Source: a virus. From it: a stretch of DNA of 64,000 bases. The translations under genes and the position numbers were made by a program. The notes under the pieces are model-generated. The model searched no databases. It had not been told where the DNA came from and worked only from the letters and a program-made list of their open reading frames with translations. The stretch covers positions 1 to 64,000 of IMG/VR virus record IMGVR_UViG_3300042924_003416; one strand, written 5' to 3'. This document shows, in pieces, positions 3,181 through 37,438 of this stretch (within the stretch, counting starts at the first letter, position 1; every line of letters begins with the position of its first letter).

Positions 3181-3327
3181 ATGGCAGAAAAGAAGGATAA
3201 GAAGTGGATACAAAAAGCAGTTAACCCTAAACATAAAGGTTTCTGTACTCCAATGTCTAAACCTACTTGTACTCCTAAAAGAGCAGCTCTTGCTAGAACA
3301 TTTAAAAAAATGGCTAAAAATAAATAA
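3181..3327 (+). CDS. Small basic protein, 48 aa (MAEKKDKKWIQKAVNPKHKGFCTP...RAALARTFKKM)
   Basis: Absent from the ORF track. It is coupled by TAGTCATG upstream and TAACATG downstream. Confidence 0.75.
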   Translation: MAEKKDKKWIQKAVNPKHKGFCTPMSKPTCTPKRAALARTFKKMAKNK

Positions 3328-3328
3328 C

Positions 3329-4551: not shown

Positions 4552-5166
4552 ATGGAAGCAAAACCAAGATCTTTAAAAAGACCAAATAGTAATGTTGTAG
4601 GATTAGAAAACCAACATATGGATATTTCTAAACCTAGTGAAGGAGCTACAACAGAAGTTCCAACAACTAAAACAAAGAATCCTTTACTAGATGATTCATG
4701 TGCTAGTTATCTTAACTATAGAATACAACAGGAGGAATATTCAGCAAGAATATATCTTTCAATGTCTATGTGGTTAAATAATGAAGGTTACATGGGTGCA
4801 GCTGCACTATGGAGAACATATTCTGATGAAGAAATGAAACATGCTGATATAGCACGAAAGTATATGTTATCATTTGGTATTCAACCAGCAACTCCTAGAT
4901 TAGATCAACCTAAACAAACATTTTCAGGTCTTCCTGAAATCATTAAACTTTCATTTGAACATGAGATAGAAGTTTCTAAACAAATTAAAGAAATGGCTAA
5001 TCATGCATTATCTGATGGAGATCATATGCTGTATGAACTATGTCTTGCTTATCTTAAAGAACAAGTTGAAGAACATGATAAGACTCAAACTTGGATGGAT
5101 AAATTAGAAGCATTTGGTACAGATAAGATTGCTCTTAGGTTACTTGATAACGAAATGGCAGGATAA
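4552..5166 (+). CDS. ftnA: Ferritin (non-heme, FtnA-like) with about 44-aa N-terminal extension
   Basis: Ferroxidase-centre motifs are intact: IQQEEYS..IY, DEEMKHA, EHEIEVS, KEQVEEH. Confidence 0.88.
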   Translation: MEAKPRSLKRPNSNVVGLENQHMDISKPSEGATTEVPTTKTKNPLLDDSCASYLNYRIQQEEYSARIYLSMSMWLNNEGYMGAAALWRTYSDEEMKHADIARKYMLSFGIQPATPRLDQPKQTFSGLPEIIKLSFEHEIEVSKQIKEMANHALSDGDHMLYELCLAYLKEQVEEHDKTQTWMDKLEAFGTDKIALRLLDNEMAG

Positions 5167-5174
5167 TTTTTTTA

Positions 5175-5221
5175 AAAAGTTTTGATATTTAAAAAACTTT
5201 TAGTATATTATAGTATATTTA
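5175..5221 (+). promoter_or_regulatory. Putative promoter (TTGATA-16 nt-TATATT; TTTAGTATATTATAGTATA) overlapped by AAAAGTTTT/AAAACTTTT inverted repeat
   Basis: The same GTATATTA core recurs in the intergenic regions before 9869, 13644 and 28849. Confidence 0.55.
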
Positions 5222-13611: not shown

Positions 13612-13643
13612 TTGTTAATGTCATTTATTTTTAGTATATTAAT
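13612..13643 (+). promoter_or_regulatory. Putative promoter (TTGTTA-17 nt-TATATT) abutting the ATG
   Basis: TTTAGTATATTAAT motif lies immediately after a terminator. Confidence 0.55.
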
Positions 13644-21488: not shown

Positions 21489-24343
21489 TGTATAATAAAA
21501 AAGTACTTATAGATTCTCTTAAGAAGTTAGGAAGTGCAAAAGCTCCAACTCAAAAGAAAGATATTATTGTGGGTTCAAATAATCCTGCACAGATGTTATC
21601 TATGAAAAAAGGAGGTTCTTCTGTAGATAAGAAGTTGAGTGTAAAAAAATCTAATATACAAGGTAAAGGTTTATTTATTGATCAACCCATTAGAAAAGGA
21701 GAAATCATTGGTTTAGCTCATCTTAATAATCAAGCTACTCCTGTAGTAGGTAAATACCATAATCACTCAGAAGATAGTCCTACTGCAGTAAACATATCTA
21801 AAGGAAATAAAAGATATTTAGTAGCTGCTAGAGATTTACCTGCCGGTACTGAAATTACTACTAACTATAGATTACAACCTGAGTTAGAACAACCTGAAGA
21901 CTTTATGCAAAAAGGAGGAATGACTCCTCAGAAAGATGGTTATAGAACTTATTCACCATTTAAAAATCTTCCTTTTATTGATGTAGAAACAGACACTATT
22001 GATACAGACAATATAGTATATGATTTACAATTGAGGGCTAATAATGGAGTTACTAAAAATGTACAAAAAAATACAGGCTTACATAAAATTCCAGGAGCAA
22101 CTGTTATAAGAGAAATTCCTATGGGTAGAAAAGGAGGATCTGCTCCTAAACTTCCTAAAAAGAAAAACTCTAAAGGATACTCAAGAAGTCTTGAAGCAAC
22201 AAATAGATTATTTGCAGAACATCCATTCTTTGCTCAATCAAAATCTAGAAAGAATAAAATATATGATCCTAATTCAAAGTACTTCCAATTTGGTGGTATG
22301 TTTACTGAAAAAGGAGCTAATGTATATTTTAATCCAACATACATGAATAACTTTACAGGTGGTACTAATTCATATGAAAAAAATATGCTTGGTTCATACC
22401 GTACAGGTTTTTCTCCTGTTGTTGGTATAGAAGGTTCATTAAGTAAAAGTAGAAGAGCTGATGAAGAAAAGGGAAGAGGTTGGTTATATAATGCATATGC
22501 CGGACTTAATCCTAATGCAATGAAAGAAGGTAACTATACTCCTTCTGCAGGTTTAAGTTTTGATTTTGAAAATTCACCACAAGATAGAGTCTTTAGACCT
22601 TTTGCTCAAATAGGTGCTGACTATAATCCTGATACTGGTCTTAATGCTGGAGCAACAACTGGTGCTAGATTTCCTTTTACACCTTATGGAAATAAAAGAA
22701 TTAAACCTGGATATGCAATAGGTCATTTAGATATATATGGTGGTATTAGAGGTGGTTATGGTAAAATGAAAGCTGATGGTGCAGGTCCTTCAGGAGGTTT
22801 AGCATATGGTGCAAGAGTTCATGGTAAATATATGCCTGAAAGAAAATCAGTTCTTGGTAAACTGATGGGTAAAGGTGCTTATTTTTATGGTGATGCAGGA
22901 ATACAGTTTGATCCTCAAAAAGGTCAACTAAGTCAGAAAATGAAAGATTATACTATTCCTTCTGGAGCGGTTGATTATTATGGTAATGCAGCAACAGCTA
23001 GTGGAAGTGATCAAGATTCAGGTCTTAAATTTGGTAATACTATTTATGCAAATGTTGGTGTCAAAAAAGAACTTGATGATATTAAGTTTAAAAAAGATGA
23101 CAGAGCAAGAAAAATTCAAGAGATTGAAGATAATGAAAAAAGAGCATTTCAGGAAAATGAAATAAAACAAGTAATAGAAAAACCTAAAAAAGAATGTCCT
23201 GAAGGAGAAGAAAGACATTGTGCTGATTGTCCTTGTGAACCAATAGAAAGAGTAAGTCATCCAAGATGGTTGCAAGAAGGTGGTGAGTATATTGAAACAG
23301 AACTTACTCCAGAAGAAATAGAACAGTATGCTAAAGGAGGGTATATCATAGAAGATATTTCTATACCTTCATTACCTAAAGCTCAATTGGGTAAAATTAT
23401 AAAAAGTACAAAGAATATAGTATTTCCACCAACTCCAGATCAAAAATTTCTTACTAATTATATATCAAATAATTTTGGCCCTCATGTTACTTCTCAACAT
23501 TCAGCAGATATTGCAAGAAGATTAGCAAGAGAACAATATCAACGTGCTGTACTAGATGCTCAACAGGCAGCACTGTTTAATGCAAGTAATATAGATATAT
23601 CTACACTACCTCAACAACGTGTTGCTGATTTACAAAATTTAGTTACACCAGCTATTCAAAGTAAAATAAATAAAGTTAACTTACATGAAGCAGAAGACTT
23701 ATTAAAAACTTTAGATCCAAGTGAACTTGATAAATACATTGATTACAGACCATTTAGAATTTATACACCTTCAGGTAGTTTAGCACTTCATCAAAATACA
23801 GATAATTTAAAAGATAACTTATTTTCTTTTAATGTATTTATGAATAAACCTAGAGAAGCTGGATTAGCATTTAATTATGCAAATAAGTTTTTTCCATATA
23901 AGAATCCATCAATTTTAGAAAAGAATAGTTTGAGTTTAGATTCATTTAACATGTTAGCTAACATGGGTCGTAGACCAGAATGGGATATACAATTTGATGA
24001 TATGATTGATATGAATGCTTTAGCTCGTCATAGTAAATTATTTGAAGGATTACCTTCTGTAGGTAGGATAGGTGCTGGTCATTTTGATAAAGCTACTGGT
24101 GAAGAGATGTTAAGAAGGTTAAATGCTATGATTGCTGAAAAAGGTTTTTCTGAAAAAGCAGACTGGCAATACACTCCAATTTCAGGAGATAACTTAGGTA
24201 TCCATAAATTTATGTTACCTAACTATAAAATAACTAGAAAATACAGTGAAGGTGGAGATTTTGAATATGAACTTGGAGATGAAGTAGATGAAACTACTAT
24301 GCAAGAATTAGAAAAATTAGGTTATACATTTGAACAAATATAG
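21488..24343 (+). CDS. Modular putative cargo protein with SET domain and beta-barrel-like domain
   Basis: TGATG overlap start. SET motifs GKGLF/KGEII, HNHS and AARDLPAGTEITTNY. Segments are delimited by xxxGG motifs. Confidence 0.75.
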   Translation: MYNKKVLIDSLKKLGSAKAPTQKKDIIVGSNNPAQMLSMKKGGSSVDKKLSVKKSNIQGKGLFIDQPIRKGEIIGLAHLNNQATPVVGKYHNHSEDSPTAVNISKGNKRYLVAARDLPAGTEITTNYRLQPELEQPEDFMQKGGMTPQKDGYRTYSPFKNLPFIDVETDTIDTDNIVYDLQLRANNGVTKNVQKNTGLHKIPGATVIREIPMGRKGGSAPKLPKKKNSKGYSRSLEATNRLFAEHPFFAQSKSRKNKIYDPNSKYFQFGGMFTEKGANVYFNPTYMNNFTGGTNSYEKNMLGSYRTGFSPVVGIEGSLSKSRRADEEKGRGWLYNAYAGLNPNAMKEGNYTPSAGLSFDFENSPQDRVFRPFAQIGADYNPDTGLNAGATTGARFPFTPYGNKRIKPGYAIGHLDIYGGIRGGYGKMKADGAGPSGGLAYGARVHGKYMPERKSVLGKLMGKGAYFYGDAGIQFDPQKGQLSQKMKDYTIPSGAVDYYGNAATASGSDQDSGLKFGNTIYANVGVKKELDDIKFKKDDRARKIQEIEDNEKRAFQENEIKQVIEKPKKECPEGEERHCADCPCEPIERVSHPRWLQEGGEYIETELTPEEIEQYAKGGYIIEDISIPSLPKAQLGKIIKSTKNIVFPPTPDQKFLTNYISNNFGPHVTSQHSADIARRLAREQYQRAVLDAQQAALFNASNIDISTLPQQRVADLQNLVTPAIQSKINKVNLHEAEDLLKTLDPSELDKYIDYRPFRIYTPSGSLALHQNTDNLKDNLFSFNVFMNKPREAGLAFNYANKFFPYKNPSILEKNSLSLDSFNMLANMGRRPEWDIQFDDMIDMNALARHSKLFEGLPSVGRIGAGHFDKATGEEMLRRLNAMIAEKGFSEKADWQYTPISGDNLGIHKFMLPNYKITRKYSEGGDFEYELGDEVDETTMQELEKLGYTFEQI

Positions 24344-24345
24344 TC

Positions 24346-27300
24346 ATGGCTAAATATAGAATAACAAGCATTCCTGCTAATTTACCACAAGCTCAAGATG
24401 GAGGATCTTTTTGGAAAAAAAAATATAATGTTGCTAAGAGTAAAAAACTTAAAAGAAATAAAACAAATACTTCTAAAAGATCTGCAGGAAACTTTTCTAA
24501 TGAAGTAGGAGAATCTATCTCACAAGACCTACCTATGGTAGAAGTCCAAGGTGTTGATCAACCTTCTTACTGGAATCAAATGTCAAGTGATGTTGTACAA
24601 GGTATAGAATGCCCTCCAGGAAAAGAAAACTTTGAAGGAAATTGTTTAACTGAAGATGAAATTCTTAGTATTCTAGATGCTAGAACTGCAGAGATGAAAC
24701 AAAAGAATTTTGATAGACGTGTAGAACAAGGTTTTAAAAAATCAAATGTTTTTGCAGATTCAGAATATGCTTCAAAAATGTTAGGTCGTTATATTTCTGC
24801 TAGGAATCAACAAGAACAAGACTATGATAATTATGCAAATAAGTACTATGATACTTTTAAAAAATCTAAAAAAAGTGATAAAATACAACCGTTTAAAAAG
24901 TTTTCTGCAGAAGAACTAGATCAATTACAAGATGTAGTTGATCAAGAAGGTAATGTAGTTATTGATGAAACAACAGGACAACCACTGCAACAAGCTAAAA
25001 TTGATGCATTTAAAAATAACTTTTTAATTAATAAAACAAAAGATGGTTTTTATGAACTGTATCCAAAAGATATTGTTAGAGATAGAATTTTACAAAGTGG
25101 TTTTAACGAAGAACAATTTAAAAATTTTTGGGGATTAGATCCAGAACAAGTAAAGGAACAGGTAGGTGATATGATAGGTACGGCTAATGAAATCTATAAT
25201 CAAAGATTACAACAACGTATTATTAAAACAGCCATTGATAAAAATATATCTGTTGAAGATGCAATTAAAACAATACCTAAATCTGAAGGTACTCAAACTG
25301 GATTAACAAATAGATTTAAAAAATCTACTCAAAAAATAATTGATGACACTTTTGATATCTATACAAATAGTATGTTAGAGTCTATGTTGTATGATCCTGA
25401 TGTTGCAAAAAAAGATGAAGATGTATTTTATTCAGAAGATCCTAAAACAGCATGGGAAAATAAATATCATGCAGGTGATTTAAAATATATTTCTGACAAA
25501 CAAAGAAAAGGTCAAAAAGCATATGATGAAGCAATTAAAAATTTTAGTAATATAGGTAGTAGTGGTGCATCAGATGAATATTATCAAAATCAAGGTAGGT
25601 ATGATGACAGGATGGCACAACAAAGATTAAAAAATCAAGGTGTACAAAAAGCAATAAATTTATCAAGAGCTGAATCGGCAAGACAAGGAGCACAAGATAA
25701 AAAGTTTAATGATGCATTTGGTCAGTATTTAAGTAATCAAGGAACATCTTATCAAAAAGAATTATTAGGAAAAGCATTTGATAAACTTAGAGCTGACCCT
25801 AAAGCAAAAATAAATTTTTTAAGAGATATTGAAAAATATCCAGACTTGGTTATGGGGGATGTTTTTAATTTAACAGATGATGAGTCTGGTAAAACATATT
25901 CTGATTTATATTCAGAACGTCTTAATGATAGCTATATGAATAGTTTAAAGGCAAGACAAAATACATTTAAAGAAGGTAGTTATAAACCTGAACTTACAAC
26001 AGGTAATAAAATATTTGACTATCTTAGACATCCTTTTCATGCAGCATATTATGCAATGCACCCAACACAAGATATGCATGGTAATTGGAATATTGATTAT
26101 GATACAAGACTAAAGCTTGAAAAAGAAAAAGGTATAAATTTAGGTACTATGGATAAAGTACAAGGATTTAATCCTATGTCAGTTTTAAATTTGACACCAC
26201 TTCAAGCTCTTAATCCTTTTAAAATAGGTAGTAATTTAAGACAGGGATATGATAAAGGAAATTTTATAGGAGCATTAGGTGATGAAATTGTTGATATTGG
26301 TACATCAGTTGGAGCTGCAAAAGGTTTTAATGCATTATCAGGAAGTGGTTTAGGATTAACAAAGGGAGCAGGAACTTTAGTAAGTAGTATATTTAATCCC
26401 TTTAGTGATATAGGATATGCTTTAAAAGCTGGAAAAAATTTAGATAATGCAACTGATTATATTAAAAAAGGTGATTATAAAAATGCAGCTTGGGAAGGTT
26501 TAGAAGGTGGATTAAATGCTATACCACTTATAGGCTTACCAAAGTATTTAAAAGGTTTTAATAGATTTAATGATGCAACAAGTGGATTTAATTTTAATAG
26601 AACATTTAATAATGCAAATCAATTAAATTTTAATAGCCCTAACTTACTTGGAACACAACAAATACCTAAATATAATATATTGAATAAAGATGGACAACTC
26701 ATTCGTAATCAATATAAAAATGGAGGGTCTCTTCCTAAAGCACAATTAGGTAAAATAGTTAGTAGTTTAAAATTATTGGAACCTGTAGAAGTATATGGTA
26801 AACAATTTTTAAGATCACATTATAATCCTTTATCTTATCCTGTTAAACTTGCTGGTTCAAAAGTAGCAGGTTTAAGTTCAGGTGCATTTAGACAACCTGG
26901 AGAAATTGCAAAAGCATTACTTGCAAAAGAAGGTGATTTAACATACAAAGGTCAAAATACAGTTATAGTAAGACCTGGAAGTGAAATTGAAAAAATATAT
27001 ACAGAAGGTGGTAGAGATTTAGTAAAAAATTATATGTTAGGTCAGACAAAAGGATTGCAAGAATTAATGTATGATTTTGAAAAAGATCCTGGACTTAACC
27101 AAGCAATAGATTATTATGGACCATTAAAAGCATATGAATTATATTCTAAAATACCACATGGTGAAAACTTAGGTATACAAGATTTTATGAAACAGGCTTC
27201 AGGTTTTAGTTTTAATAAAGATAAAGTTATTGATGATCTTATGAGTGGGTTTGATCAAAATCTTAATATATTTGATCAATCAAAAAATACTAGATTACTT

Positions 27301-28791
27301 TTTGATTTAAAAAGAGATTTGGGTGAAGAAGCAGGTAATGCAAAATATAGTGAAATTGCAAAAGATAATTTAAAATATTTGTTTGATCAGTATGGTAATG
27401 ACGTTATACCTTTTCAAGCAAATGTAGATCCTATGCATACAAAAGATTTAATACTAAGAGGTAATCCCATAATGCCGCTAGATGATATTGGAGGTCATAT
27501 GGGATTTTTAAAAAAAGGTCCTGATGGTAATTATGATTTTACAACTAGAGATTTGTGGAGTTTTAGACCTAGTGCTTATGGTAAAAGATATGCTGGAGAT
27601 AGTACTGCAAAAGCTTTATTTAAAGATGCTCAAGTTCAGTTGATGGATACTTTTGGTAAACCATTTATTCTACATCAAACTAATCCTATTAAATTTAAAG
27701 AAGGTGGTGATTTACCAAAAGCTAAGATGGGTTGGCCTCCTGGAGGTTTTAGATCCCTAAGAAAAATTCCAACAGTATTTGGTAGAGAAGTTTACAGACC
27801 AAGCAGTACTATTTTTAACACAGGAATAAAAACAGGAAATATTCATGTTCCTAAAAAAATAGACTTTTTAAAAGAAACTGGACCAGAAATAGACGAACGT
27901 GTTAGAAGAAATTTAATATGGGATTTTGATGAGTATACTGGAGGAGATCCTGCTAACCTACCAGGAATATCAAGTTATATAGGTAGAGGTCTAGCATCTC
28001 CCACTGAATTAACAAAGTATTTAGGTGATTTTGATTTTAAACCTTTTTCAGATGGATGGCAAGTAAGAAATCAAATGATGAATGCATTTGATGGACCTCA
28101 ATGGGCAGCAGGTAAAAATGATTTTTTTACTGAATCTGAATTAATAAACCTTGTTAATCAACAAAGTGAATGGCAAAAAGCAAGAAATTCATTTGATGAT
28201 ATGTATCCTGAAAATCCTGCTATGGGAATTATGAATGCATTTAGTGGGGATAACAGTAGAGAAGAGTTATTTAGTAATCTTTACCCTAATGCATCTATGC
28301 CAAATTTTAGAAGTAAGTTTACAACACCAGAACAAGAAGCTTTATTACAACAAAATTTACCTTGGCAATATTCAGTAAGAGATAAAGGTATGCTTAATAG
28401 TTGGAAATTAAATCCTTTTCTTGCTGATACACTTAATGATAAAATTTTACCTTCATTTAAAAGACTAACAAACTTTAAAAAAGATTTAGCAGATGATAAT
28501 CATATGGTTGGAGAATATAGAGGAATGTTAGGTGTAAAATATGAAGATTGGAAAAATGCATCACCAGAACAAATTAGTAAATGGGCAAAAGAAATAAATA
28601 AAAAACTTTATAATAGAGATTTTAATCGTTATAAAAGTGATATAGAAAAACCATTTAAAGGAAGTGATGCATGGAATCAAATAACATCTCAACCAGGTTG
28701 GAAAAATAAAAATGGAGGTGTTGCTATGAAACTTACCAAAAAGGAAATAGACAAATATGTTCAAGGAGGATACATTGTAGAAGAAGAATAA
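24346..28791 (+). CDS. Modular putative cargo protein, 1481 aa
   Basis: Long ORF with a Gly/Ala-rich membrane-like segment and cassettes separated by GG-x-LPKAxxG. Confidence 0.7.
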   Translation: MAKYRITSIPANLPQAQDGGSFWKKKYNVAKSKKLKRNKTNTSKRSAGNFSNEVGESISQDLPMVEVQGVDQPSYWNQMSSDVVQGIECPPGKENFEGNCLTEDEILSILDARTAEMKQKNFDRRVEQGFKKSNVFADSEYASKMLGRYISARNQQEQDYDNYANKYYDTFKKSKKSDKIQPFKKFSAEELDQLQDVVDQEGNVVIDETTGQPLQQAKIDAFKNNFLINKTKDGFYELYPKDIVRDRILQSGFNEEQFKNFWGLDPEQVKEQVGDMIGTANEIYNQRLQQRIIKTAIDKNISVEDAIKTIPKSEGTQTGLTNRFKKSTQKIIDDTFDIYTNSMLESMLYDPDVAKKDEDVFYSEDPKTAWENKYHAGDLKYISDKQRKGQKAYDEAIKNFSNIGSSGASDEYYQNQGRYDDRMAQQRLKNQGVQKAINLSRAESARQGAQDKKFNDAFGQYLSNQGTSYQKELLGKAFDKLRADPKAKINFLRDIEKYPDLVMGDVFNLTDDESGKTYSDLYSERLNDSYMNSLKARQNTFKEGSYKPELTTGNKIFDYLRHPFHAAYYAMHPTQDMHGNWNIDYDTRLKLEKEKGINLGTMDKVQGFNPMSVLNLTPLQALNPFKIGSNLRQGYDKGNFIGALGDEIVDIGTSVGAAKGFNALSGSGLGLTKGAGTLVSSIFNPFSDIGYALKAGKNLDNATDYIKKGDYKNAAWEGLEGGLNAIPLIGLPKYLKGFNRFNDATSGFNFNRTFNNANQLNFNSPNLLGTQQIPKYNILNKDGQLIRNQYKNGGSLPKAQLGKIVSSLKLLEPVEVYGKQFLRSHYNPLSYPVKLAGSKVAGLSSGAFRQPGEIAKALLAKEGDLTYKGQNTVIVRPGSEIEKIYTEGGRDLVKNYMLGQTKGLQELMYDFEKDPGLNQAIDYYGPLKAYELYSKIPHGENLGIQDFMKQASGFSFNKDKVIDDLMSGFDQNLNIFDQSKNTRLLFDLKRDLGEEAGNAKYSEIAKDNLKYLFDQYGNDVIPFQANVDPMHTKDLILRGNPIMPLDDIGGHMGFLKKGPDGNYDFTTRDLWSFRPSAYGKRYAGDSTAKALFKDAQVQLMDTFGKPFILHQTNPIKFKEGGDLPKAKMGWPPGGFRSLRKIPTVFGREVYRPSSTIFNTGIKTGNIHVPKKIDFLKETGPEIDERVRRNLIWDFDEYTGGDPANLPGISSYIGRGLASPTELTKYLGDFDFKPFSDGWQVRNQMMNAFDGPQWAAGKNDFFTESELINLVNQQSEWQKARNSFDDMYPENPAMGIMNAFSGDNSREELFSNLYPNASMPNFRSKFTTPEQEALLQQNLPWQYSVRDKGMLNSWKLNPFLADTLNDKILPSFKRLTNFKKDLADDNHMVGEYRGMLGVKYEDWKNASPEQISKWAKEINKKLYNRDFNRYKSDIEKPFKGSDAWNQITSQPGWKNKNGGVAMKLTKKEIDKYVQGGYIVEEE

Positions 28792-28840
28792 ACTTTATAA
28801 GTTTATTGATTAAATTAAAATTTAGTATATTAGTATATAA
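28787..28840 (+). promoter_or_regulatory. Perfect palindrome AATAAACTT-TAT-AAGTTTATT followed by TTTAGTATATTAGTATA promoter-like motif
   Basis: 9-bp inverted repeat at 28787-28807; shared GTATATTA motif at 28825-28832. Confidence 0.5.
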
Positions 28841-28848
28841 CACATCTT

Positions 28849-31800
28849 ATGAAAAAATCAGTAAGAATAAGAAAAGCTCTTCCAGGTGAAAAACCTGGTT
28901 ACTATAATAAGACTGCAAAGTTTTTACAAAAAGCTCAAATGGGTATGCAAGTTGGTTCTCCAAGTATGGATCCTCAAAGATTAAATAAGGTATATGAGAA
29001 TGTATATATATCATTAAAACAGTCTACTCCTCCTGATGTAGTTTATAATGAACTTGTTACAGAATATGCTTTAGATCAGGATACTTCATTAAGTATTCTT
29101 AGAGCTGCTTTAGGTCAGTTATCTCAAGAAGGTTATTTTGATGAATCTGAATTAGAGGGTGAGAGTACATCTCAAAGTGAAGAAGAAACTCAAGAAGAAG
29201 ATACTTCTGCCCAAGAAGAACAACAAGCATCAGATGATGCAGAACAACAACAACTTGCTGAGTCATCTGAAGGTTATTATGATGATGAAGAAGCATTAAA
29301 CAATGACACATCCCATCTTGAAGATGAACAGTATGAGCAACAAGAAGCATTTAGATATGGTGGGTACTGGCAAGATGGTGGAGAAAGTGAAGAAGTATAT
29401 GATGAATCAGAGTATCAAGATGAAGAAAATTATTCTGATGAATCTGATACACGTGAAAATGTAGTTGATCAATATAATTATCCTGGACAATCAACAATGG
29501 AGAAACCTTTCTCTATAGAAGATTTAATGGCTATTACTCCAGGGATGCAAGGACAAGAAGCATTTCCAGATATATCAGCTTATTTAGGTGATTATCAACC
29601 TGTAGCAGATTCATATCAACCAGAGAATTATTTACCTCAAGCACAGTATGGTACTATTATTAAAGCTGCTAAAGCTGCTGCAGATGCACTTAAAGTAGAC
29701 CCTCCTATCTTAAGACAACCGTTTACTAACTTAAGTACTTTACGTAAGTACATACCTATTTCTACTCTTACAGGAGAAGCAGTAACTAAATTACCATTAA
29801 TTGGATCTAAACTTGCACCTAAATTAGCAACTACTTTTACTCAAAATAGAGATGAGTTGTTTAAAGTAATGCAGGGTCAGTCCCCTAAGACAGGTATATT
29901 TAGTCAAACTGGTAGTTATGCTGGTGGAGCTGATGGTAGTTTATCTGCTGATAGATTATTGTTGTATCAAGATGATGTATTTAATATTATTGATCAAATA
30001 GAAAATGGAGGACGTTCTGCTTTTCAATTTATGGATATTGATCCTGTTGCAAAAAATGATGGATTAATAAGTGGATTGTATCCATTAGATTCTAAAATTG
30101 TAAGTGGTGTTGATGATAATGGTTTTAAATTCTTTGAATTAAATAAAACATTTACTCCAGGTGAAAAATTACCATTTGGTACTTTACCTTCTAAAGCTAA
30201 AGAAGTTACATTTAAAAATAGATTCTATTATAAGACTGATGAGGCTGGTCAAGTACAAGTATTTGATTCTTTAGGTAATCCTTTATCTCAAGGTGCTCAA
30301 ACTAAATTTGAAGTTGCAAGACCTTTTGGAACAACTGTTTCAAGAACACTTACTGATCCAATACTAAGAAATTCTAATACACCATTTCCTAGTTTTAGAA
30401 CAGGATACGAAGGTGGAAGACTTACTGAAACTATGGGTGAAAAACCTATGACTTTTGCAGACATGGGTGTAAGAGGTAAGATTGGTAGAGGATTAGAAAC
30501 ATTTGGTTTTACTGGTTTAAATCTTCCTTTTAGAACAGGAGCTGATGCTATTCAAAAAGTTGACTATCCAGTATTTGGATATACTAATAAAGCTTTAGGA
30601 CCTAATGTAATAGATCCTGCTACTGAAGGATCTTATGCAAAAGATATTGCAAATGCAATGAACTATAAATATAGAGTTGGCCGTAATACATTACTTGGTC
30701 TTGGTGCTCTAGGTGCATTAGGTTATACAGGATATAATGCTTATAATAAATGTCAATGTGAAGATCCTCTTGCTCCAAACTATCAAATGAAAGATAAGTA
30801 TGATAACTGTCCTTGTGGTACTGATGTAGGTAGTAGGAGAACTTTAGATCCAACAGCTAATCCTTTTACTGAACAAGTTGATCCAAGATCTTTAACTATG
30901 CCTGATAGTATGCAATTTCTTATTCAAAAAGGAATTTATCCAAGTGCAGAAAATTATTACAGGTATCAAGATAGTAATGTTGTAAATCCAAATATGGAGA
31001 ACAGTATTCCTGCAGATGATTTTGCATATGGTGGTGCATTACCAAGAGCACAAAAAGGTCGTATTATTAAAGGTGTTGCAAAAACAATGAAAACTTTAAA
31101 AGCACAACCTACACCAAAAGGAGTAACCATACCAAAAAATATGTCTGACATTCCAATACCTAAATATAATGTAAAAGGTATGGATGCAAGAAAAGCATTT
31201 GAAGATGATTTAAGACTTGATCAAGATTTTATAGATTTTCAAAATAATGATCAATTTTTACAGTACAGTCCAGGTTTTCAAACTAACCAACAACGCTTAG
31301 ATTCTGAACCTCTTCGTGATTTCTTTAAATATGTAACTGGATATTCTGATCCTCTTGAAATAAAACAATTTTTAAATACCCCTGGTATAACAAAATATAA
31401 TAAATTTGGTGTCCCTTTTGCAACAAGAGATTTTAAAATGATGCAAACACCTTTTGAAGATCCTTTTAATCTTTTAGATGATGGTTTTAATATACCACCT
31501 TATCAAAAAGGAGGTATTTCAAAAAATCAGTTTATTAAAAAGTTTACTTCAATGTATCAAGAAGGTGGGGAAAAAGATCCAAAAGATCCTTCACTAGGTA
31601 AAGGAAAAAGGTTTGATACTCTTACTAATGATGTAGAAGCTAGAAAAGATATATTTAAAAGTAAACTTAAAAATAATTCTAATGTAGCTCTTACAGAAGA
31701 GATATATAAAAATGCTCAGAGTAATCCTCAGATTCTAAGCATGTTAATGCAAGATGGTCAAAAAGAAAATCTTGCAGAAAATGATAATATGCAAACAGCA

Positions 31801-33900
31801 CAATATGGTGGTGTTAAAGAAGATAGTATACCAAATTGGTATAGAGGTTATCAATCTATGATGACTCCTGCACAATATAAAAAACTGTACAAACAGTTAC
31901 GTAGAATGATACCTAAAGGTGTAGATATTTCAAAAGCTAATATTGCATCTAACTTTTTTGATAGGGGAACAACTTTACCACCATATGGTCATGTTATGAC
32001 ATATCCTCAATATGATGATATGATGAATAGAATGACTATGCCAATGATGATAGATCCAAATACTTTTGGATTTAGAGGTACTAGTATTCCTTCACAACTT
32101 CAAGCAGAAGATGCAGTAAATAAAAATAATCAAAAAGGTACACAATTTTTACCTGAACTATCTCCTGACTTTATTGATTCACCATTAACACCTGAATTAA
32201 AAGGTCAAGATTTTTTACAGTTTTATGAAGACTATCCAACTCAACTTCAACAAAAAGATTTTTTTCCATTTGTTGATTATCCTGCAGTTGCTGAACATGG
32301 TGGGTTTGTAGATACTGATGCTGAAGAACCTTTATATAAGTTTATATATGGTGGTGATGAACCAGAATATTATGAACAGTATGGTTTACCAGAAGCACAG
32401 TACGGTGCTGATGTTTCTGGTATTTATGACTATATTGATGGTCTTCAGAAGAATGCTAAGAATAATGATCCTGATCCTAATCCTAAAGAAAATGAAGATA
32501 AGAAAGATGATCAAGATATAATTGAATGTGGACCAGGAACAGTATGGAGTAAAACATATCAATCTTGTATTCCTAGATCTAAAGTAACATATAATCAAAG
32601 ACAAGTAAGAAGAAGTCCTGGATTCTTTAATACTATGTTACCTTGGAATGCACCATTTGGTTATGCCGGTTCATGGACAAAACAGATGTCTTTACCATAT
32701 TATTTAGGAAGTAAAGATCCTTATAAAGGTCAATTAACAGGAGCTCCTGTTGCTAGATACGTAACTAAAAAAGGTATTTTAGGTAGACCTAAAAAATGGA
32801 TAGACATTTACAATACTGGCAGCGGTTCTGGTAGCATAAATCCTATAGAGTTAGAAAAACTGATGGAACAAAACAGAAGAGGTTCCAATAGAAACATGAA
32901 TAAAAATCAGTTTAATAATCCTTCAGAAGATAGAGTAAGTGGTAGAGATCAGTTAGAAAGTGATCTTAAAAAGAGAATGGGTTATTCAGATGAAGAGTGG
33001 GAAAGCACTAGTGAAAAAGATAAGAGAAGAGAGATAAGAGCTGAGAGATATAACCAAGGTAAAGGTTTAAGATATAAGACTAATGAAGCTTATGAAAATC
33101 TTAAAGATTCTGCATTAGGTAATACTGCTAAATTTTATGGAAACATAGGTAAAAAAGTAAAAAACTTTCTTACTAGAAAAGATTATGGTGGTGCTGGTGG
33201 ATGGGATCCTTTTGCATTAGGTAGTGGATTAAGTACTGGTGTTGGTCAAAACATGTCTGCATTTGCACCTTATTCACAACAACAACAATTTGAGAATAGT
33301 TTGTTTGGTACTAAAGGTCCTTCTGCAGCTCCTAAACCACAACAGAATCCTCTTGCTAATGTTAATTTTGGTACGGGCTCTTATGCTGAGACTGCAAATA
33401 CTGGACATACATTAGGTGCACAAGGTCAAGAAATTATTCCACAAAAAGAACCAGAAGCACCTGAAAATGAATATGTAGGTGTTGAAAACAAAAGAAAAGA
33501 TATGCAAAATGTAGATCCTGAAGCAGGAGTAAATGTTACTAATGCAGCTATCAGAGGTGGTTTAGGAGTACTAAGTAGAATGCAGAATGCAGGAAGAGAA
33601 AGAAATTTCTTATTAGATACTGTTGATCCAATGAACTTATATGCATCTGCAAATGAAACTGACAGAGGTGACTGGCAAGACTTTGGTTCTAAATCTGGTA
33701 TGTTAAGATATGATCAAGAAGGACAAGACAGAAGTAGTAGAGCTACCTATGGTAATTATGCTAATGCAGCATATGGTGGATACATGCAAGAGGGTGGATT
33801 CTATGAAGAACCATACTTTGAAGAAGACGAAGAAGTATATATGACTCCAGATGAATTAGAACAATTTTTACAAGCCGGAGGACAAGTTGAATATTTATAA
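28849..33900 (+). CDS. Modular putative cargo protein, 1683 aa
   Basis: About 16 xxxGG/AQxG motifs, an acidic tract, and one TM-like helix followed by a Cys module. Confidence 0.7.
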   Translation: MKKSVRIRKALPGEKPGYYNKTAKFLQKAQMGMQVGSPSMDPQRLNKVYENVYISLKQSTPPDVVYNELVTEYALDQDTSLSILRAALGQLSQEGYFDESELEGESTSQSEEETQEEDTSAQEEQQASDDAEQQQLAESSEGYYDDEEALNNDTSHLEDEQYEQQEAFRYGGYWQDGGESEEVYDESEYQDEENYSDESDTRENVVDQYNYPGQSTMEKPFSIEDLMAITPGMQGQEAFPDISAYLGDYQPVADSYQPENYLPQAQYGTIIKAAKAAADALKVDPPILRQPFTNLSTLRKYIPISTLTGEAVTKLPLIGSKLAPKLATTFTQNRDELFKVMQGQSPKTGIFSQTGSYAGGADGSLSADRLLLYQDDVFNIIDQIENGGRSAFQFMDIDPVAKNDGLISGLYPLDSKIVSGVDDNGFKFFELNKTFTPGEKLPFGTLPSKAKEVTFKNRFYYKTDEAGQVQVFDSLGNPLSQGAQTKFEVARPFGTTVSRTLTDPILRNSNTPFPSFRTGYEGGRLTETMGEKPMTFADMGVRGKIGRGLETFGFTGLNLPFRTGADAIQKVDYPVFGYTNKALGPNVIDPATEGSYAKDIANAMNYKYRVGRNTLLGLGALGALGYTGYNAYNKCQCEDPLAPNYQMKDKYDNCPCGTDVGSRRTLDPTANPFTEQVDPRSLTMPDSMQFLIQKGIYPSAENYYRYQDSNVVNPNMENSIPADDFAYGGALPRAQKGRIIKGVAKTMKTLKAQPTPKGVTIPKNMSDIPIPKYNVKGMDARKAFEDDLRLDQDFIDFQNNDQFLQYSPGFQTNQQRLDSEPLRDFFKYVTGYSDPLEIKQFLNTPGITKYNKFGVPFATRDFKMMQTPFEDPFNLLDDGFNIPPYQKGGISKNQFIKKFTSMYQEGGEKDPKDPSLGKGKRFDTLTNDVEARKDIFKSKLKNNSNVALTEEIYKNAQSNPQILSMLMQDGQKENLAENDNMQTAQYGGVKEDSIPNWYRGYQSMMTPAQYKKLYKQLRRMIPKGVDISKANIASNFFDRGTTLPPYGHVMTYPQYDDMMNRMTMPMMIDPNTFGFRGTSIPSQLQAEDAVNKNNQKGTQFLPELSPDFIDSPLTPELKGQDFLQFYEDYPTQLQQKDFFPFVDYPAVAEHGGFVDTDAEEPLYKFIYGGDEPEYYEQYGLPEAQYGADVSGIYDYIDGLQKNAKNNDPDPNPKENEDKKDDQDIIECGPGTVWSKTYQSCIPRSKVTYNQRQVRRSPGFFNTMLPWNAPFGYAGSWTKQMSLPYYLGSKDPYKGQLTGAPVARYVTKKGILGRPKKWIDIYNTGSGSGSINPIELEKLMEQNRRGSNRNMNKNQFNNPSEDRVSGRDQLESDLKKRMGYSDEEWESTSEKDKRREIRAERYNQGKGLRYKTNEAYENLKDSALGNTAKFYGNIGKKVKNFLTRKDYGGAGGWDPFALGSGLSTGVGQNMSAFAPYSQQQQFENSLFGTKGPSAAPKPQQNPLANVNFGTGSYAETANTGHTLGAQGQEIIPQKEPEAPENEYVGVENKRKDMQNVDPEAGVNVTNAAIRGGLGVLSRMQNAGRERNFLLDTVDPMNLYASANETDRGDWQDFGSKSGMLRYDQEGQDRSSRATYGNYANAAYGGYMQEGGFYEEPYFEEDEEVYMTPDELEQFLQAGGQVEYL

Positions 33901-33908
33901 CAATACCA

Positions 33909-36900
33909 ATGATAAAAGTTAGAATTAAAAAAGTACCTAAAGCAAGAACTGGATACCAAGTTCAAGGAGCATTAGTTAATGATGTACCTGCAATGGGAGG
34001 TATGGACTACAATGCTTATATAGGTAAAGAAAAACTTAAGGAAAGTAAGTACATCACCGCTGTCCCTAGAGAAGAAGCAAATCTTGAAGCAGAGGGAGGT
34101 GAAACAGTATATGGAGACATCAATGGTGATGGAATGCCAGAACATAAAATCATCAAAGGACCAAGACATGCTCAAGGTGGAGTTCCTCTAAGTCTTCCTG
34201 AAGATACTTTTATCTTTAGTGATACCAGAGCTATGAGGATAAAAGATCCTGAGATACTTACTATGTTTGGTAAAGGTGGTGCAAATAAATCTTTTACACC
34301 TGCAGAACTTGCTAAACAATATGATGTACAGAAATATAGAAAACTTTTAGAAGATCCTGATACAGATGCAATAGAAAGAAAGACTGCTGAGTTGATGATC
34401 AAAAAGTATGTTATAAAACTTGGTTGTCTTGCTCTTACACAAGAGTCTATGAAAGGATTCCCTCAAGGAATTCCTGCCGTAGCAAAACCTTGTATGGAAG
34501 CTAAAGGTCTTACAGAACAAGATATATTACCAAGTAAAGAAATACAAGGTCTAAATGAACAGTTGAAGCAACAAATGCAACAACAAGAAGGAGGAGATGA
34601 AAATCAAGTTCAAGAGGCTGTTGACATGAATGAAGGAAATCCTGTTGCTGAACCTACACAACAAGAACCTCAAGGTGAAATGCCTCCATCTCCAGAAGAA
34701 ATGATGATGTATGGTGGTCATAGAAGATTAAGAAGAGGTCAAATGGGAATGGAACAAGTTCCACAAGAAATGATGGAGCCTCAACAAGAACAAGGAGGAG
34801 GAGATGAGATGATGGAAATTGTTCAAGAAGTTCAATCTGCTTTAGAAAGAGGTGCTGACCCTTCTGAAGTTGTTATGAATTTATTAGAGAATAATGTTCC
34901 TCCACAAGCAATAGTAGAAATCTTTGCTCAATTGGGTGCAGATCCACAACAAGCTGCTGGTCTTGTAGAACAAGTAATAAGTCAAGCTCAAGGTGGTGGT
35001 CAAGAACAAATGATGCAAGAACAACCTATGTCAGAAGAAGAAGCAATGATGATGCAACAACAACAGATGCAACAACAAGCTCCTCCAATGGCAATGTATG
35101 GGATGACTATGGGTGGTTATGATATGCCTTTTTTTGACATACCTCAAGCTGAATATGGAATGTCTATGGGTTCTGGTATGTCTCAAAACTATCAGGGAAG
35201 ACCTAAAAGAATTCCTGGATCAGGTCCTATGTTTCCATTAACAAGAGCAGACAATGGTATTGTGGTTGATGGTAGTAATATGACAGAAGAACAACTACAA
35301 AGAGCAATTTGGAATGAACAACAAAAAGCACTTAAAGATTGGAAAGATAAAAATCCCGGTAAAGATCCAAAAACATCTGGTTATAAAGAACCACAAATTA
35401 ATGTAAAACGTAAAGATGCATCAGGTAAAGTTATAACTTCAAAGTTAAAATCATCAGGATTTATTATTCCTGAAGGTAAAGATATTAGTGATTTAAAAGG
35501 TTTTCCTGATACACCAAGAGGGAGAACTGTTGCTGCACAGTATATGTTAATTGAAGATAACTTAAAAAATCCTATAGTTCAAGCTGAGATTATTAAAAAT
35601 ACTAAAGAAGCAATTGAAAATCCTGATGCTTGGACAGGTAAAGGTGGTAAAAGAAATGCAAATAACACATGGTCTAAAAAATATGGATCTTTACCAGATG
35701 ACGAAGAAATTATAAAACAAGCATTAAATCATCAAAAAAGAAATTTAATGTTTGAAGCTAATGAAGTAGATCCTCAATTATTTACAGATGTTGGTGATGC
35801 TTTAGATAAAGCAAGTACAGTTGTATCTGAAAAATATATAAATCCTAAAACAGGAAAACCCTATACTTTAAAAGAAGCCCAATCTGAATTAAAAAGATTA
35901 ACTGATAAGGGATACACAAGTATAGCAAAGATGTCAGAGAAACTTAAAGTTCCTTTAGATCCTTTAGGAAAAGATCGAGTTTTACAACAAGCTACAATGC
36001 ATTCATATGCAAAGTCTTATCAAAATTTTCAAAAAGGTGACTATGATTCTAATCCAGATGCTAAATATGCTATGGATAATTTTTTAGGTAATGTAAGTTT
36101 AGTACATGCCGGAGCAAATGATGAAACCTCAATGGGTGCTTTATATGGTACAATTGGTAATAAAATATCACCTCTTGATGATAAATATAATTATGCTAAT
36201 AATAACTGGTATGATTTTGCAAATAGTTCAAAAGGAGATAGTAGATTTACAACTTATGGTGATACAAGTGCTGGTCATAGATATATGGTTGGTAAAAGAA
36301 ATTATGAATTTGAAGATTTACCACCCGAAGTAGATCCAAATTGTCAATGTGCAGATCCTAATAAACCTAACTATGGTCAGTATAAAGATGCTAATGGAAA
36401 TTGTAGTTGTACTCCTCCAGATGTTCCAAAAGATAAACCAAAGAATTGCCCATGTAGAAAGTCTGATGGAACAGAAATAAACATGACTCCTGATAAAGAT
36501 GGTAACTGTCCTCCTTGTACAGAAGAACAAACTATTGAAACTCCTGCACCTCCTGCTGAATGGTGGTTACAAGATACTATTAAAACTACTGGTGCATTTG
36601 GAGACTTAATGGGTATTAAAAAATATATGCCGTGGGCACCAGGAGTTGAACTTGGAACACCAAGACCAACTTTTATGGATCCTACAAGAGAACTTGCTGC
36701 TAATGCAGAACAAGCAAACATCCAAACCCAAGGTATGGCACAGTTTGCAGGACCTCAAGCATTGTCTGCAAGATCATCTGGTATACAAGGTCAAGCTGCT
36801 AAGAATGCTGCTGATGTACTTGCTAAGTATAATAATGCTAATGTTAATGTTGCAAATCAATTTGAAATGAAAGCAAATGACATTAGAAATCAAGAGAGTA

Positions 36901-37382
36901 TGTTAAAACAAGCAACTGCTCAAAGAGTCTATGATCAGAATACAGTTGCTAACCAACAGTTTGATAATGCTAAGTTGGCAATGAGAAATCAGTTAAGAAA
37001 CTACTATACTAATGCAATTACTAACAGATGGAAAACAGATGCTCTTAATCAAATGTTCCCTAACTATGCTGTATCTGCTGGAGTAGGTGGAAGAATGGAT
37101 TATAGACCTTCAGAAAGAACTCCTAACCCAACACAGACTACAGGTAAAACTAGAGAAGAGTGGTTCATGTGGTGTAAAAACAATGGAGATCCTAATCCTT
37201 CTGCATGTGCTCAAAGAATGATGGATAATAAAGGAAGTTCAAGTAGTAGCAGTGATGGGGCAGATGCAAACATGATTAAAACTATGTATGGTCAATATGG
37301 TGGGGCTATGTATCCAGATGATGATTTTTATGAAGATGGAGGATATGTACATGTTAATTCATGGCTACCATTTATAATGTAA
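33909..37382 (+). CDS. Putative cargo protein, 1157 aa
   Basis: EAEGGE...GPRHAQGGVP motif of a kind seen in Bacteroidetes phage virion proteins, a Q/M/E-rich tract, and a C-terminal A/Q/N-rich coiled coil. Confidence 0.7.
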   Translation: MIKVRIKKVPKARTGYQVQGALVNDVPAMGGMDYNAYIGKEKLKESKYITAVPREEANLEAEGGETVYGDINGDGMPEHKIIKGPRHAQGGVPLSLPEDTFIFSDTRAMRIKDPEILTMFGKGGANKSFTPAELAKQYDVQKYRKLLEDPDTDAIERKTAELMIKKYVIKLGCLALTQESMKGFPQGIPAVAKPCMEAKGLTEQDILPSKEIQGLNEQLKQQMQQQEGGDENQVQEAVDMNEGNPVAEPTQQEPQGEMPPSPEEMMMYGGHRRLRRGQMGMEQVPQEMMEPQQEQGGGDEMMEIVQEVQSALERGADPSEVVMNLLENNVPPQAIVEIFAQLGADPQQAAGLVEQVISQAQGGGQEQMMQEQPMSEEEAMMMQQQQMQQQAPPMAMYGMTMGGYDMPFFDIPQAEYGMSMGSGMSQNYQGRPKRIPGSGPMFPLTRADNGIVVDGSNMTEEQLQRAIWNEQQKALKDWKDKNPGKDPKTSGYKEPQINVKRKDASGKVITSKLKSSGFIIPEGKDISDLKGFPDTPRGRTVAAQYMLIEDNLKNPIVQAEIIKNTKEAIENPDAWTGKGGKRNANNTWSKKYGSLPDDEEIIKQALNHQKRNLMFEANEVDPQLFTDVGDALDKASTVVSEKYINPKTGKPYTLKEAQSELKRLTDKGYTSIAKMSEKLKVPLDPLGKDRVLQQATMHSYAKSYQNFQKGDYDSNPDAKYAMDNFLGNVSLVHAGANDETSMGALYGTIGNKISPLDDKYNYANNNWYDFANSSKGDSRFTTYGDTSAGHRYMVGKRNYEFEDLPPEVDPNCQCADPNKPNYGQYKDANGNCSCTPPDVPKDKPKNCPCRKSDGTEINMTPDKDGNCPPCTEEQTIETPAPPAEWWLQDTIKTTGAFGDLMGIKKYMPWAPGVELGTPRPTFMDPTRELAANAEQANIQTQGMAQFAGPQALSARSSGIQGQAAKNAADVLAKYNNANVNVANQFEMKANDIRNQESMLKQATAQRVYDQNTVANQQFDNAKLAMRNQLRNYYTNAITNRWKTDALNQMFPNYAVSAGVGGRMDYRPSERTPNPTQTTGKTREEWFMWCKNNGDPNPSACAQRMMDNKGSSSSSSDGADANMIKTMYGQYGGAMYPDDDFYEDGGYVHVNSWLPFIM

Positions 37383-37404
37383 ACTTTACAAGTTTATTAA
37401 ACTT
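37380..37404. repeat. TAAACTT-TAC-AAGTTTA-T-TAAACTT overlapping inverted repeats
   Basis: Same element as at 28789-28805. Confidence 0.5.
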
Positions 37405-37438
37405 AAAAAATTTTAATAGTTTTACACAAACATAAATT

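Follow-up and report, generated by a model that had tools for sequence, protein, structure and literature searches.

The borders between four consecutive cargo-like genes (g1-g4) of an uncultured crAss-like phage all fall inside a repeated protein module of about 45 residues, here termed the seam, directly after its YIVE-type strand. Where a border cuts the seam, the upstream protein ends in the first part of the module (the tail), and the downstream protein opens with an extra basic amphipathic strand ahead of an LPxAxxG element (the head). Tail and head are in all likelihood, by homology, the two sides of one split seam. The rule that follows, a basic strand only where a gene border cuts a seam, is simple and testable. 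We propose that g1-g4 may encode mosaic cargo proteins of the polyvalent type, in which swappable cassettes are joined by this conserved seam.

The window analyzed comprises 64,000 nucleotides (positions 1 to 64,000) of the IMG/VR record IMGVR_UViG_3300042924_003416, which has 85,773 bases (85.8 kb) and is about 71% complete. The block is anchored by a muzzle protein gene (Table 1), upstream of which lie genes matching CrAss_Ring_1, CrAss_Ring_2, and CrAss_Ring_3_4 (ring proteins 1, 2, and 3/4). The four cargo-like genes follow directly downstream, which matches the position of the cargo genes in Crassvirales, and the muzzle stop codon overlaps the g1 start codon (TGATG). Most relatives carry three-gene chains (gA, gB, gC) without g2. 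SET is the Pfam match in g1, g2-g4 belong to no PHROG or Pfam family, and a PDB search with the conserved N-terminal domain of gC gave no match. Among GenBank phage records, no match was found for g5 and one 5% match for g2, and no cultured relative came to light.

Table 1. Coordinates of the cargo-gene block and of its tails, heads, and seams (positions within the window)
Feature	Positions	Strand	Description
Muzzle protein gene	15933..21488	+	Pfam PF25731 crAss_MUZ, E 1.2e-29; anchors block as crAss-like
g1 (gA), first cargo-like gene	21488..24343	+	SET cassette, one internal seam, tail C
Internal, covalently continuous seam in g1	23267..23392	+	Profile E 3.8e-12
Tail C, g1 C-terminus	24242..24340	+	YSEGG-DFEYELGDEVDETTMQELEKLGYTFEQI
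g2, head C to tail A	24346..28791	+	Extra cargo gene in this lineage
Head C, g2 N-terminus	24346..24405	+	MAKYRITSIPANLPQAQDGG
Tail A, g2 C-terminus	28702..28788	+	KNKNGG-VAMK-LTKKEIDKYVQ-GG-YIVEEE
Junction A spacer	28789..28848	+	Palindrome TAAACTTnnnAAGTTTA on stop codon; promoter-like TTTAGTATATT
g3 (gB), head A to tail B	28849..33900	+	51 orthologues aligned
Head A, g3 N-terminus	28849..28902	+	MKKSVRIRKALPGEKPGY
Tail B, g3 C-terminus	33829..33897	+	EEVYMTPDELEQFLQAGGQVEYL
g4 (gC), last gene of chain	33909..37382	+	Head B at N-terminus
Head B, g4 N-terminus	33909..33968	+	MIKVRIKKVPKARTGYQVQG

The seam consists of an aromatic-x-x-GG motif, a short strand, a helix (L[TS]xxEIxxY), a GG pair, and a strand [YFW]-I-V-E, after which come (D)ISVPxL or L and then P/x-K-A-Q-x-G. 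The internal copy in g1 reads WLQEGG-EYIET-ELTPEEIEQYAK-GG-YIIED-ISIPS-LPKAQLG, with ELTPEEIEQYAKGGYIIED at about 23303-23359. All nine matches of the pattern P[KRQE]A[QKRE].G in the window lie in g1-g4 (none in the other 20 ORFs), and GG pairs make up nearly all of the columns that are invariant across 51 gB orthologues. [YM]QKGG and KAQxG also occur in small basic proteins encoded in this structural block. Among 1.84 billion sequences, the module profile matched 1086 representative proteins (clusters) at E<=0.001 and 561 at E<=1e-10, whereas tblastn found the module in none of 50,697 GenBank phage records, and it is absent from Cellulophaga phage phi17:2 and crAss001. Pfam and PHROGs offered no known family for it, and a PDB profile search returned only weak local helix-strand look-alikes (E 0.024-1.6). 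Chance or low complexity as the origin of the modules was ruled out by the restriction of the pattern, the database profile, and the profile-profile comparison.

The seam is a repeated module, not a dedicated C-terminal element, and is more often internal than terminal: the best 150 of the 1086 database matches hold 232 internal and 126 C-terminal copies, and gA proteins carry two to four copies each. In 497 unique ORFs of relatives, the tail profile found 56 C-terminal and 49 internal copies. Internal copies are followed by DISVPxLxxAQxG, ELPxAQxG, or xxxGG in 173 of 203 cases; they continue covalently into the LPxAQxG-type element that elsewhere follows the head strand. The idea of an earlier sequence-only reading that tail and head form one split domain is upheld to this extent, but the tail is not the dedicated docking module which that reading had assumed.

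That reading had listed three related C-terminal modules, one internal copy, and three basic N-termini in consecutive genes, and all of these peptides are present in g1-g4. Among the 24 ORFs of the window, the tail pattern occurs at the C-terminus of three (g1, g2, and g3) and a loose head pattern in three (g2, g3, and g4), so that the matches make up exactly three adjacent gene pairs. The basic strand takes the forms M-K-K-x-V-R-I-R-K, M-x-K-V-R-I-K-K, and M-A-K-Y-R-I-T, and is lacking in gA, g5, and the other ORFs of the window. Tail C is followed immediately by the g1 stop codon (24341-24343) and is conserved in L003-L005, L007, L010, and others. The C-terminus of g4, GGYVHVNSWLPFIM (37338-37379), is conserved but unlike the tails.

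The termini are kept in more than 90 related viral contigs (L001-L093), down to 35% identity of the neighboring g5, whereas the protein interiors vary widely (g1 length 458-1955 aa). Of 350 distinct adjacent gene pairs, 100 have both tail and head, six the tail only, 23 the head only, and 221 neither; these counts rest on broad terminal patterns, which replaced the first profiles, since each of those had converged on one class and their 2x2 table (p 0.18) was misleading. Counting six heads recognized by eye, every C-terminal tail is followed by a gene with a head (106/106), although the junctions fall into three probably paralogous classes and thus represent few independent events. The head pattern K-[VY]-R-I is N-terminal in 58 proteins and internal in one, and the head profile, applied to the 497 unique ORFs, gave 73 N-terminal matches plus two at residue 13 (alternative starts). 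Not one of 150 database representatives has a basic strand behind a tail in a single ORF, and the relatives' ORFs and database representatives examined include no protein in which a tail is naturally fused to a basic head. The g2 N-terminus aligns only to N-termini, and the relatives compared offered no case in which a seam cut in one lineage has a continuous orthologue in another.

The co-occurrence of tails and heads predicted by the sequence-only reading thus holds from the tail side but not from the head side, as heads also stand behind other C-termini. Normal heads follow GGDLSKLNKFIH-type C-termini in L027/28/33/90 and L038/39, a tail truncated behind G[YF]K in L088, and no upstream tail at all in L073 and L074. 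Elsewhere, in favor of the split-seam explanation, tail and head change jointly: in L034/35 the upstream gene bears a head-like strand and the next gene has no head, in L072/80/84/86 tail B is truncated and head B degenerate, and in L079/L044/L038/L039 the gB-gC junction is wholly absent.

The heads behind other C-termini bear on a rival explanation, according to which each seam copy binds one virion component (tail-barrel rings, muzzle, or portal) or flexes as a hinge, with no contact between tail and head; the basic N-terminal strand would then be a leader inserted into the channel or lining it, and adjacency would reflect gene fission at seams. Besides the heads behind non-canonical C-termini, the predominance of internal, repeated copies and the motifs shared with the small basic proteins are in keeping with it. 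Support also comes from Bacteroides phage crAss001, whose cargo proteins C1/C2 are gp45 and gp46: according to the accessible text of the structural study (Bayfield et al., 2023, PMC10172136), gp45 attaches by short helical segments to the tail barrel and the portal, and probably also to the muzzle. In the gp45 sequence, aromatic-xx-GG motifs at 260-264 and 559-563 lie just after the structured segments 214-245 and 425-552. The explanation does not account for the restriction of the basic strand to genes that follow a seam-ending gene, nor for its consistent absence from continuous seams, and we regard it as rather unlikely.

Charges and class relationships speak to how tails and heads might recognize each other. 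The last eight residues of tails have a mean charge of -1.73 (+0.19 at other junctions), and residues 2-11 of heads a mean of +4.10 (-0.47 at other junctions). Heads are therefore basic, as the sequence-only reading had described them, whereas its "mostly acidic" tail applies to tails A and B but not to class C tails, which are neutral to slightly basic (0 to +2 over the last nine residues). Tail and head charges do not covary in class A (Spearman -0.11, p 0.47, n 48), in class B (Spearman -0.08, p 0.57, n 53), or overall (Spearman -0.13, p 0.17, n 110), which is a further point for the anchor or hinge explanation. Profile-profile comparison indicates that the tail classes are related to each other beyond chance (A-B 89.5%, A-C 90.5%, B-C 33%), as are the head classes (B-C 93%, A-B 70%, A-C 0.5%), against 0.2-0.4% in tail-versus-head controls. 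Classes pair as A-A (45), B-B (45), and C-C (7), which follows from synteny. With tails resembling one another, heads resembling one another, and no charge covariation, orthogonal, class-specific tail-head recognition, and with it a docking "code", is not supported.

The junctions might instead act at the nucleic-acid level, as recombination linkers, as signals for translational coupling or recoding, or as RNA structures, and not be protein modules. The junction A spacer, with its palindrome and TTTAGTATATT, is indeed conserved as DNA in about 50 distinct loci, and cassettes shuffle between positions. In the modules themselves, however, two to four synonymous codons are in use at the positions of 47 junction-B DNAs where G, V, I, Y, F, or A is conserved. 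Synonymous sites in tails and heads are thus free to vary although the encoded residues are maintained, which points to selection on the protein and largely refutes the idea that the modules harbor a linker acting as DNA or an RNA structure. Junction spacing also differs by class (-4 to 3, 5-11, and 35-62 nt). The frames upstream of the downstream start codons are open for only four to six codons and junction A holds several stops, so that fusion of the cargo genes by read-through or frameshift is impossible and was ruled out. A nucleic-acid explanation is consequently highly improbable.

Proteolytic processing offers a third rival explanation, in which cargo polyproteins would be cut at or near GG by a protease of the virus or its host; natural gene ends would mimic processed ends, which would make fission at seams neutral. 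The near-exclusive invariance of GG pairs in the gB orthologues and the start of SET and SLT cassettes directly after seams fit this explanation. Double-glycine leaders, in which an amphipathic helix LSxxELxxIxGG ends in GG, are cut by C39 peptidases. By analogy, the helix-GG layout of the seam (LTxxEIxxYxxGG) recalls such leaders, although the spacing is off by one residue, and the double-glycine motif is an N-terminal leader, whereas the seam motif lies inside the protein or at its C-terminus. Processing is frequent among polyvalent proteins, according to the available text of Iyer et al. (2017, PMC5512222), which ties this to zincin-like peptidase domains; none was found in g1-g4 or in 10 relatives. 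Pfam finds no peptidase in g1-g4, no peptidase family was detected in the 10 relatives scanned, and Peptidase_C39 (PF03412), C48, C5, and S78 were unmatched in the record, which is weak evidence given its incompleteness. A conserved 45-residue module far exceeds the needs of a cleavage site, and the basic N-terminal strand is left unexplained, so that processing appears improbable.

Under the split-seam explanation, the basic N-terminal strand would pair with the final strand of the upstream tail, which is mostly acidic, and so take the place of the missing peptide bond. Structure predictions covered single chains. AlphaFold2 (AF2) predicted the isolated internal module of g1 (pLDDT 82.4) as a helix at TPEEIEQYA with extended arms and no sheet, and neither Foldseek nor VIA-align found a structural neighbor for it in the PDB. 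The AF2 monomer model of a natural 676-aa gB, built from a 51-sequence alignment, places a head strand at E4-9 (pLDDT about 77) and a tail composed of E655-658, H660-668, and E672-675 (pLDDT 77-84). In the same model, a lone strand, E546-555, is an alternative partner for the head strand. A physical, non-covalent re-joining of proteins at the split seam is a possibility that we advance with some doubt.

Such re-joining would keep the cargo proteins together in the gene order gA-(g2)-gB-gC during packaging and let them leave through the tail as one thread. A somewhat more tentative proposal is the full scheme, with cargo clipped end to end by an acidic beta-alpha-beta end and the basic N-terminal strand of the next protein, packaged and ejected as one ordered thread, and with fission and fusion at seams exchanging covalent and non-covalent links. 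How several large proteins are ordered and threaded through a narrow tail ahead of the DNA is an open question for podovirus-like phages, and the accessible text of a 2026 paper on phage N4 (PMC13434306) calls for structures of crassvirus ejection proteins so that mechanisms can be compared. As an undescribed module in over a thousand protein clusters, the seam marks cassette borders in injected phage proteins and helps to annotate very large "hypothetical" cargo genes.

Several known systems resemble the proposed re-joining. In PKS/NRPS docking domains, beta-hairpin forms included, a C-terminal element pairs with the N-terminal element of the next subunit, and the order of subunits is the gene order. 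The co-occurrence of C- and N-terminal elements at junctions is similar here, but the seam has no sequence or fold relation to these domains (Pfam is silent), the element seen at its C-termini also serves as a covalent linker within proteins, and no orthogonal specificity was seen. Donor-strand complementation, as in chaperone-usher pili, and split inteins rest on a related principle: one chain supplies an N-terminal strand or fragment that completes an element of its neighbor. Acidic/basic complementarity is a further likeness of split inteins. The tail as modeled does not form an Ig-like domain lacking one strand, and on direct reading the junction peptides contain no intein-like nucleophile residues.

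Closer in setting are crAss001 gp45 and gp46, which, as described in the accessible text of PMC10172136, are encoded directly after the muzzle gene, as are g1-g4, and are long, largely unstructured, and presumed to leave through the tail in the N-to-C direction. gp45, too, has aromatic-xx-GG at domain edges and a basic N-terminus, but no tail lies upstream of the latter, and its weak likeness to heads does not reach significance. Neither gp45 nor gp46 was matched by the seam, tail, or head profile, and no sequence homology was detectable; unlike g1-g4, the crAss001 proteins have neither the seam module nor the tail/head pair.

The polyvalent proteins described by Iyer et al. (2017, PMC5512222) combine unrelated effector and enzyme domains, such as SET and SLT (lysozyme-like), in one injected polypeptide, a layout that g1-g4 may share; the available text contains none of the words "linker", "split", or "crAss", and the conserved seam and its split form lie outside its description. 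Cassettes are swapped between relatives here as in polyvalent proteins, and they are also shuffled between positions among the relatives of g1-g4. SLT or SET was present in three of the 10 relatives scanned, and most cassettes had no family.

The virus record comprises 85,773 bases and is about 71% complete, and the window covers the structural block of this uncultured crAss-like phage, in which ring proteins 3/4, 2 and 1 were identified by Pfam. The muzzle gene is followed by four large consecutive genes (g1-g4), and these by g5 and three giant genes. In crAss001, genes in the equivalent position encode cargo proteins that are housed within capsid and tail and are ejected (PMC10172136). By synteny with crAss001, the g1-g4 products may likewise be cargo; searches with PHROGs, Pfam and the seam, tail and head profiles described below revealed no relationship to gp45 or gp46. 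The block also contains a ferritin-like protein gene, and in one relative (L001/L006, 2650-8167) the muzzle gene is read as a 594-aa and a 1339-aa ORF that overlap, perhaps because of a frameshift or through misassembly. Short motifs of the cargo genes recur in four small, very basic proteins encoded in the block, with seven instances of [YM]-Q-K-G-G or M-x-x-G-G and one each of VKAQKG, KKAQDG and KKAKFG. These motifs may be a tag common to proteins inside the virion.

Features of the window
Feature	Position	Remark
Four small, very basic proteins	1380-1724, 2112-2624, 2642-3178, 3290-3847	
Ferritin-like protein gene	4552-5166	PF00210, E 7e-25
Exact TTTAGTATATT	5199-5209	just 5' of gene at 5245
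Exact TTTAGTATATT	13630-13640	just 5' of gene at 13644
Muzzle protein gene	15933-21488	PF25731, E 1.2e-29
g1	21488-24343	same strand as muzzle gene; ATG overlaps muzzle stop
g2	24346-28791	same strand as muzzle gene
Junction A spacer	28789-28848	
g3	28849-33900	same strand as muzzle gene
g4	33909-37382	same strand as muzzle gene
g4 residues 1-180	33909-34448	gC N-terminus
g4 C-terminus	37338-37382	GG-aromatic-...-PF-[IL]-[ML]
Palindrome of junction A spacer, found again	37380-37413	past g4
g5 N-terminus	37439-37520	MATYLQGVTDYIPxxQPFQPDLNFY

The peptides quoted in the sequence-only reading (C-terminal tails, the internal copy and N-terminal heads) were all found where it had placed them. A loose tail pattern, applied to the window's 24 ORFs, matched the C-termini of g1, g2 and g3 only, and a loose head pattern the N-termini of g2, g3 and g4 only. 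Profiles of three tail classes (A, B and C, ending g2, g3 and g1) and three head classes (A, B and C, opening g3, g4 and g2), built from relatives and compared profile to profile, gave 89.5% (A-B), 90.5% (A-C) and 33% (B-C) for tails, 93% (B-C), 70% (A-B) and 0.5% (A-C) for heads, and 0.2-0.4% for tail-versus-head controls. The modules are thus real and related; the one pair for which no relationship could be demonstrated is that of heads A and C.

Relatives comprised thirteen loci reached via g2 or the muzzle C-terminus and eighty reached via the g5 N-terminus, with identity from 72% down to 35%. The terminal peptides are conserved throughout both sets, while protein interiors diverge strongly, with g1 lengths between 458 and 1955 aa. 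The usual architecture between muzzle and g5 is three genes: gA, which begins MYNKK and terminates in tail A; gB, with head A at its start and tail B at its end; and gC, with head B at its start and a C-terminus of the GG-aromatic-...PF type. Compared with this chain, the window lineage has an extra gene, g2, and an extra junction, tail C/head C. The first 180 residues of gC show 61% mean column identity with 21 invariant columns among 52 sequences, without a Pfam or PDB match. The g4 C-terminus and g5 N-terminus, both strongly conserved in loci L014-L093, could make up one more terminal pair, the fourth, differing in kind from the other three. In L018, L027-L033, L061 and L065, an ORF of about 640 nt (about 211-213 aa) is inserted just before g5; like g5 it begins MATYLQ, and its ...GIYKIT... 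presumably resembles a GIY-YIG homing endonuclease.

The co-occurrence of tails and heads in adjacent genes of relatives, a check proposed earlier, was borne out. In 350 distinct adjacent gene pairs (both genes at least 200 aa), 100 had tail and head, 6 a tail only, 23 a head only and 221 neither (Fisher p ~1e-56, the pairs being related by descent). By eye, all six tail-only pairs do have heads, missed by the pattern, so that a head follows 106 of 106 C-terminal tails; the head-only pairs are mostly pattern-missed tails or false heads. Genuine exceptions are heads behind a GG-D-L-S-K-L-N-K-F-I-H-type end (L027/28/33/90, L038/39), behind a tail cut short after G-[YF]-K (L088), or without any upstream tail (L073, L074). 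Both partners change together in L034/35, where a head-like strand and KLNKF end the upstream gene and the next gene is headless, in L072/80/84/86, where tail B lacks its last strand and head B its V-R-I, and in L079, L044, L038 and L039, where the gB|gC junction is missing. The idea of an orthogonal code setting protein order is not supported, as similarity runs across the classes and the way they pair tracks synteny.

Nor is the tail a dedicated C-terminal module. In the 497 unique ORFs of the relatives' loci, its profile picked up 56 copies at C-termini and 49 internal ones, and a profile built from 78 of 99 unique copies of the module (A1) matched 1086 of 1.84 billion representative proteins at E<=0.001 (561 at E<=1e-10). 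The best 150 of these 1086 matches hold 232 internal and 126 C-terminal copies, two per protein in 99, three in 44 and four in 7, and 89 have a gA-like start. Internal copies run into [DE]-I-S-V-P-x-L-x-x-A-Q-x-G, E-L-P-x-A-Q-x-G or the next aromatic-xx-GG in 173 of 203 cases. Enzyme cassettes come after such copies: two relatives have an SLT transglycosylase domain that begins at most 13 residues past one, a third has a SET domain, and Pfam also places SET in g1. GG pairs make up almost all invariant columns of 51 gB orthologues. Internal repeats, cassettes and invariant GG together indicate that the tail is a repeated seam between swappable cassettes.

Behind their basic strand, g2, g3 and g4 carry LPxAxxG, the very element found after continuous seams, with nine occurrences in g1-g4 and none in the other 20 ORFs of the window. 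Pattern matching places the basic strand at the N-terminus of 58 distinct proteins and in the interior of one (L074 gC, where it follows aromatic-xx-GG but no tail); by profile, it is N-terminal in 73, plus two at residue 13, probably alternative starts. A tail followed by a basic strand within one ORF occurs in 0 of the best 150 of the 1086 matches. That gene junctions in the g1-g4 block are split forms of the internal seam is well supported. Because the basic strand occurs only where the seam is cut, its pairing with the upstream tail, standing in for the missing covalent link, appears the best explanation, which we put forward tentatively. Seam copies might instead be anchors or hinges touching virion components, with heads as leaders; crAss001 gp45 segments make similar contacts, and we consider this reading rather unlikely. 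Improbable is a role as GG-type processing sites; the size of the module weakens this reading, and C39, C48, C5 and S78 peptidases were not found in the 85,773-base, ~71% complete record.

The expected charge complementarity of the pair stood in part: mean charge is -1.73 in the last eight tail residues (+0.19 in other C-termini) and +4.10 in head residues 2-11 (-0.47 for comparison), but class C tails are not acidic. Within classes, tail and head charges do not covary (Spearman -0.11, p 0.47; -0.08, p 0.57). AF2 modelled a 53-residue internal seam (78-sequence alignment, pLDDT 82.4) as one helix (TPEEIEQYA) with extended arms and no sheet, for which no structural neighbour was found. In the model of a natural 676-residue gB (L029; 51-sequence alignment, mean pLDDT 58.7), the head forms a strand at residues 4-9 (pLDDT ~77) and the tail strands at 655-658 and 672-675 and a helix at 660-668 (pLDDT 77-84). 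Since strands need partners, head-tail pairing would fit this prediction; another candidate partner is a lone strand at 546-555.

That the junctions act as nucleic-acid signals is highly improbable. Across 47 distinct DNAs of junction B, between two and four synonymous codons serve the conserved Gly, Val, Ile, Tyr, Phe and Ala positions, so selection acts on peptides, not DNA. In about 50 distinct relatives, conservation of the junction A spacer extends to its DNA; its palindrome TAAACTTnnnAAGTTTA begins on the stop codon, and TTTAGTATATT lies downstream, about 20-30 nt before the ATG. The two elements probably represent a terminator-like hairpin and a phage promoter; over the whole window, neither is enriched over shuffles.

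The seam module was not found in Pfam, PHROGs or PDB, had no tblastn match among 50,697 GenBank phage records, and no published description was found in the literature searched. The rule that a basic strand occurs only where a seam is cut at a gene border is new here. Nearby concepts are PKS/NRPS docking domains, donor-strand complementation, split inteins and double-glycine leaders. Polyvalent proteins are another; the text describing them (PMC5512222) mentions neither linkers, split forms nor crAss. Also close in concept, crAss001 cargo proteins share gene position and aromatic-xx-GG at domain edges with g1-g4, but lack the seam module. Aromatic-xx-GG also occurs in cargo-position proteins of distant relatives: six times in gp041 of Cellulophaga phage phi17:2 (L094, 29115-31802) and three times in crAss001 gp45 (L095, 11988-14516), two of them just past the segments visible by cryo-EM.
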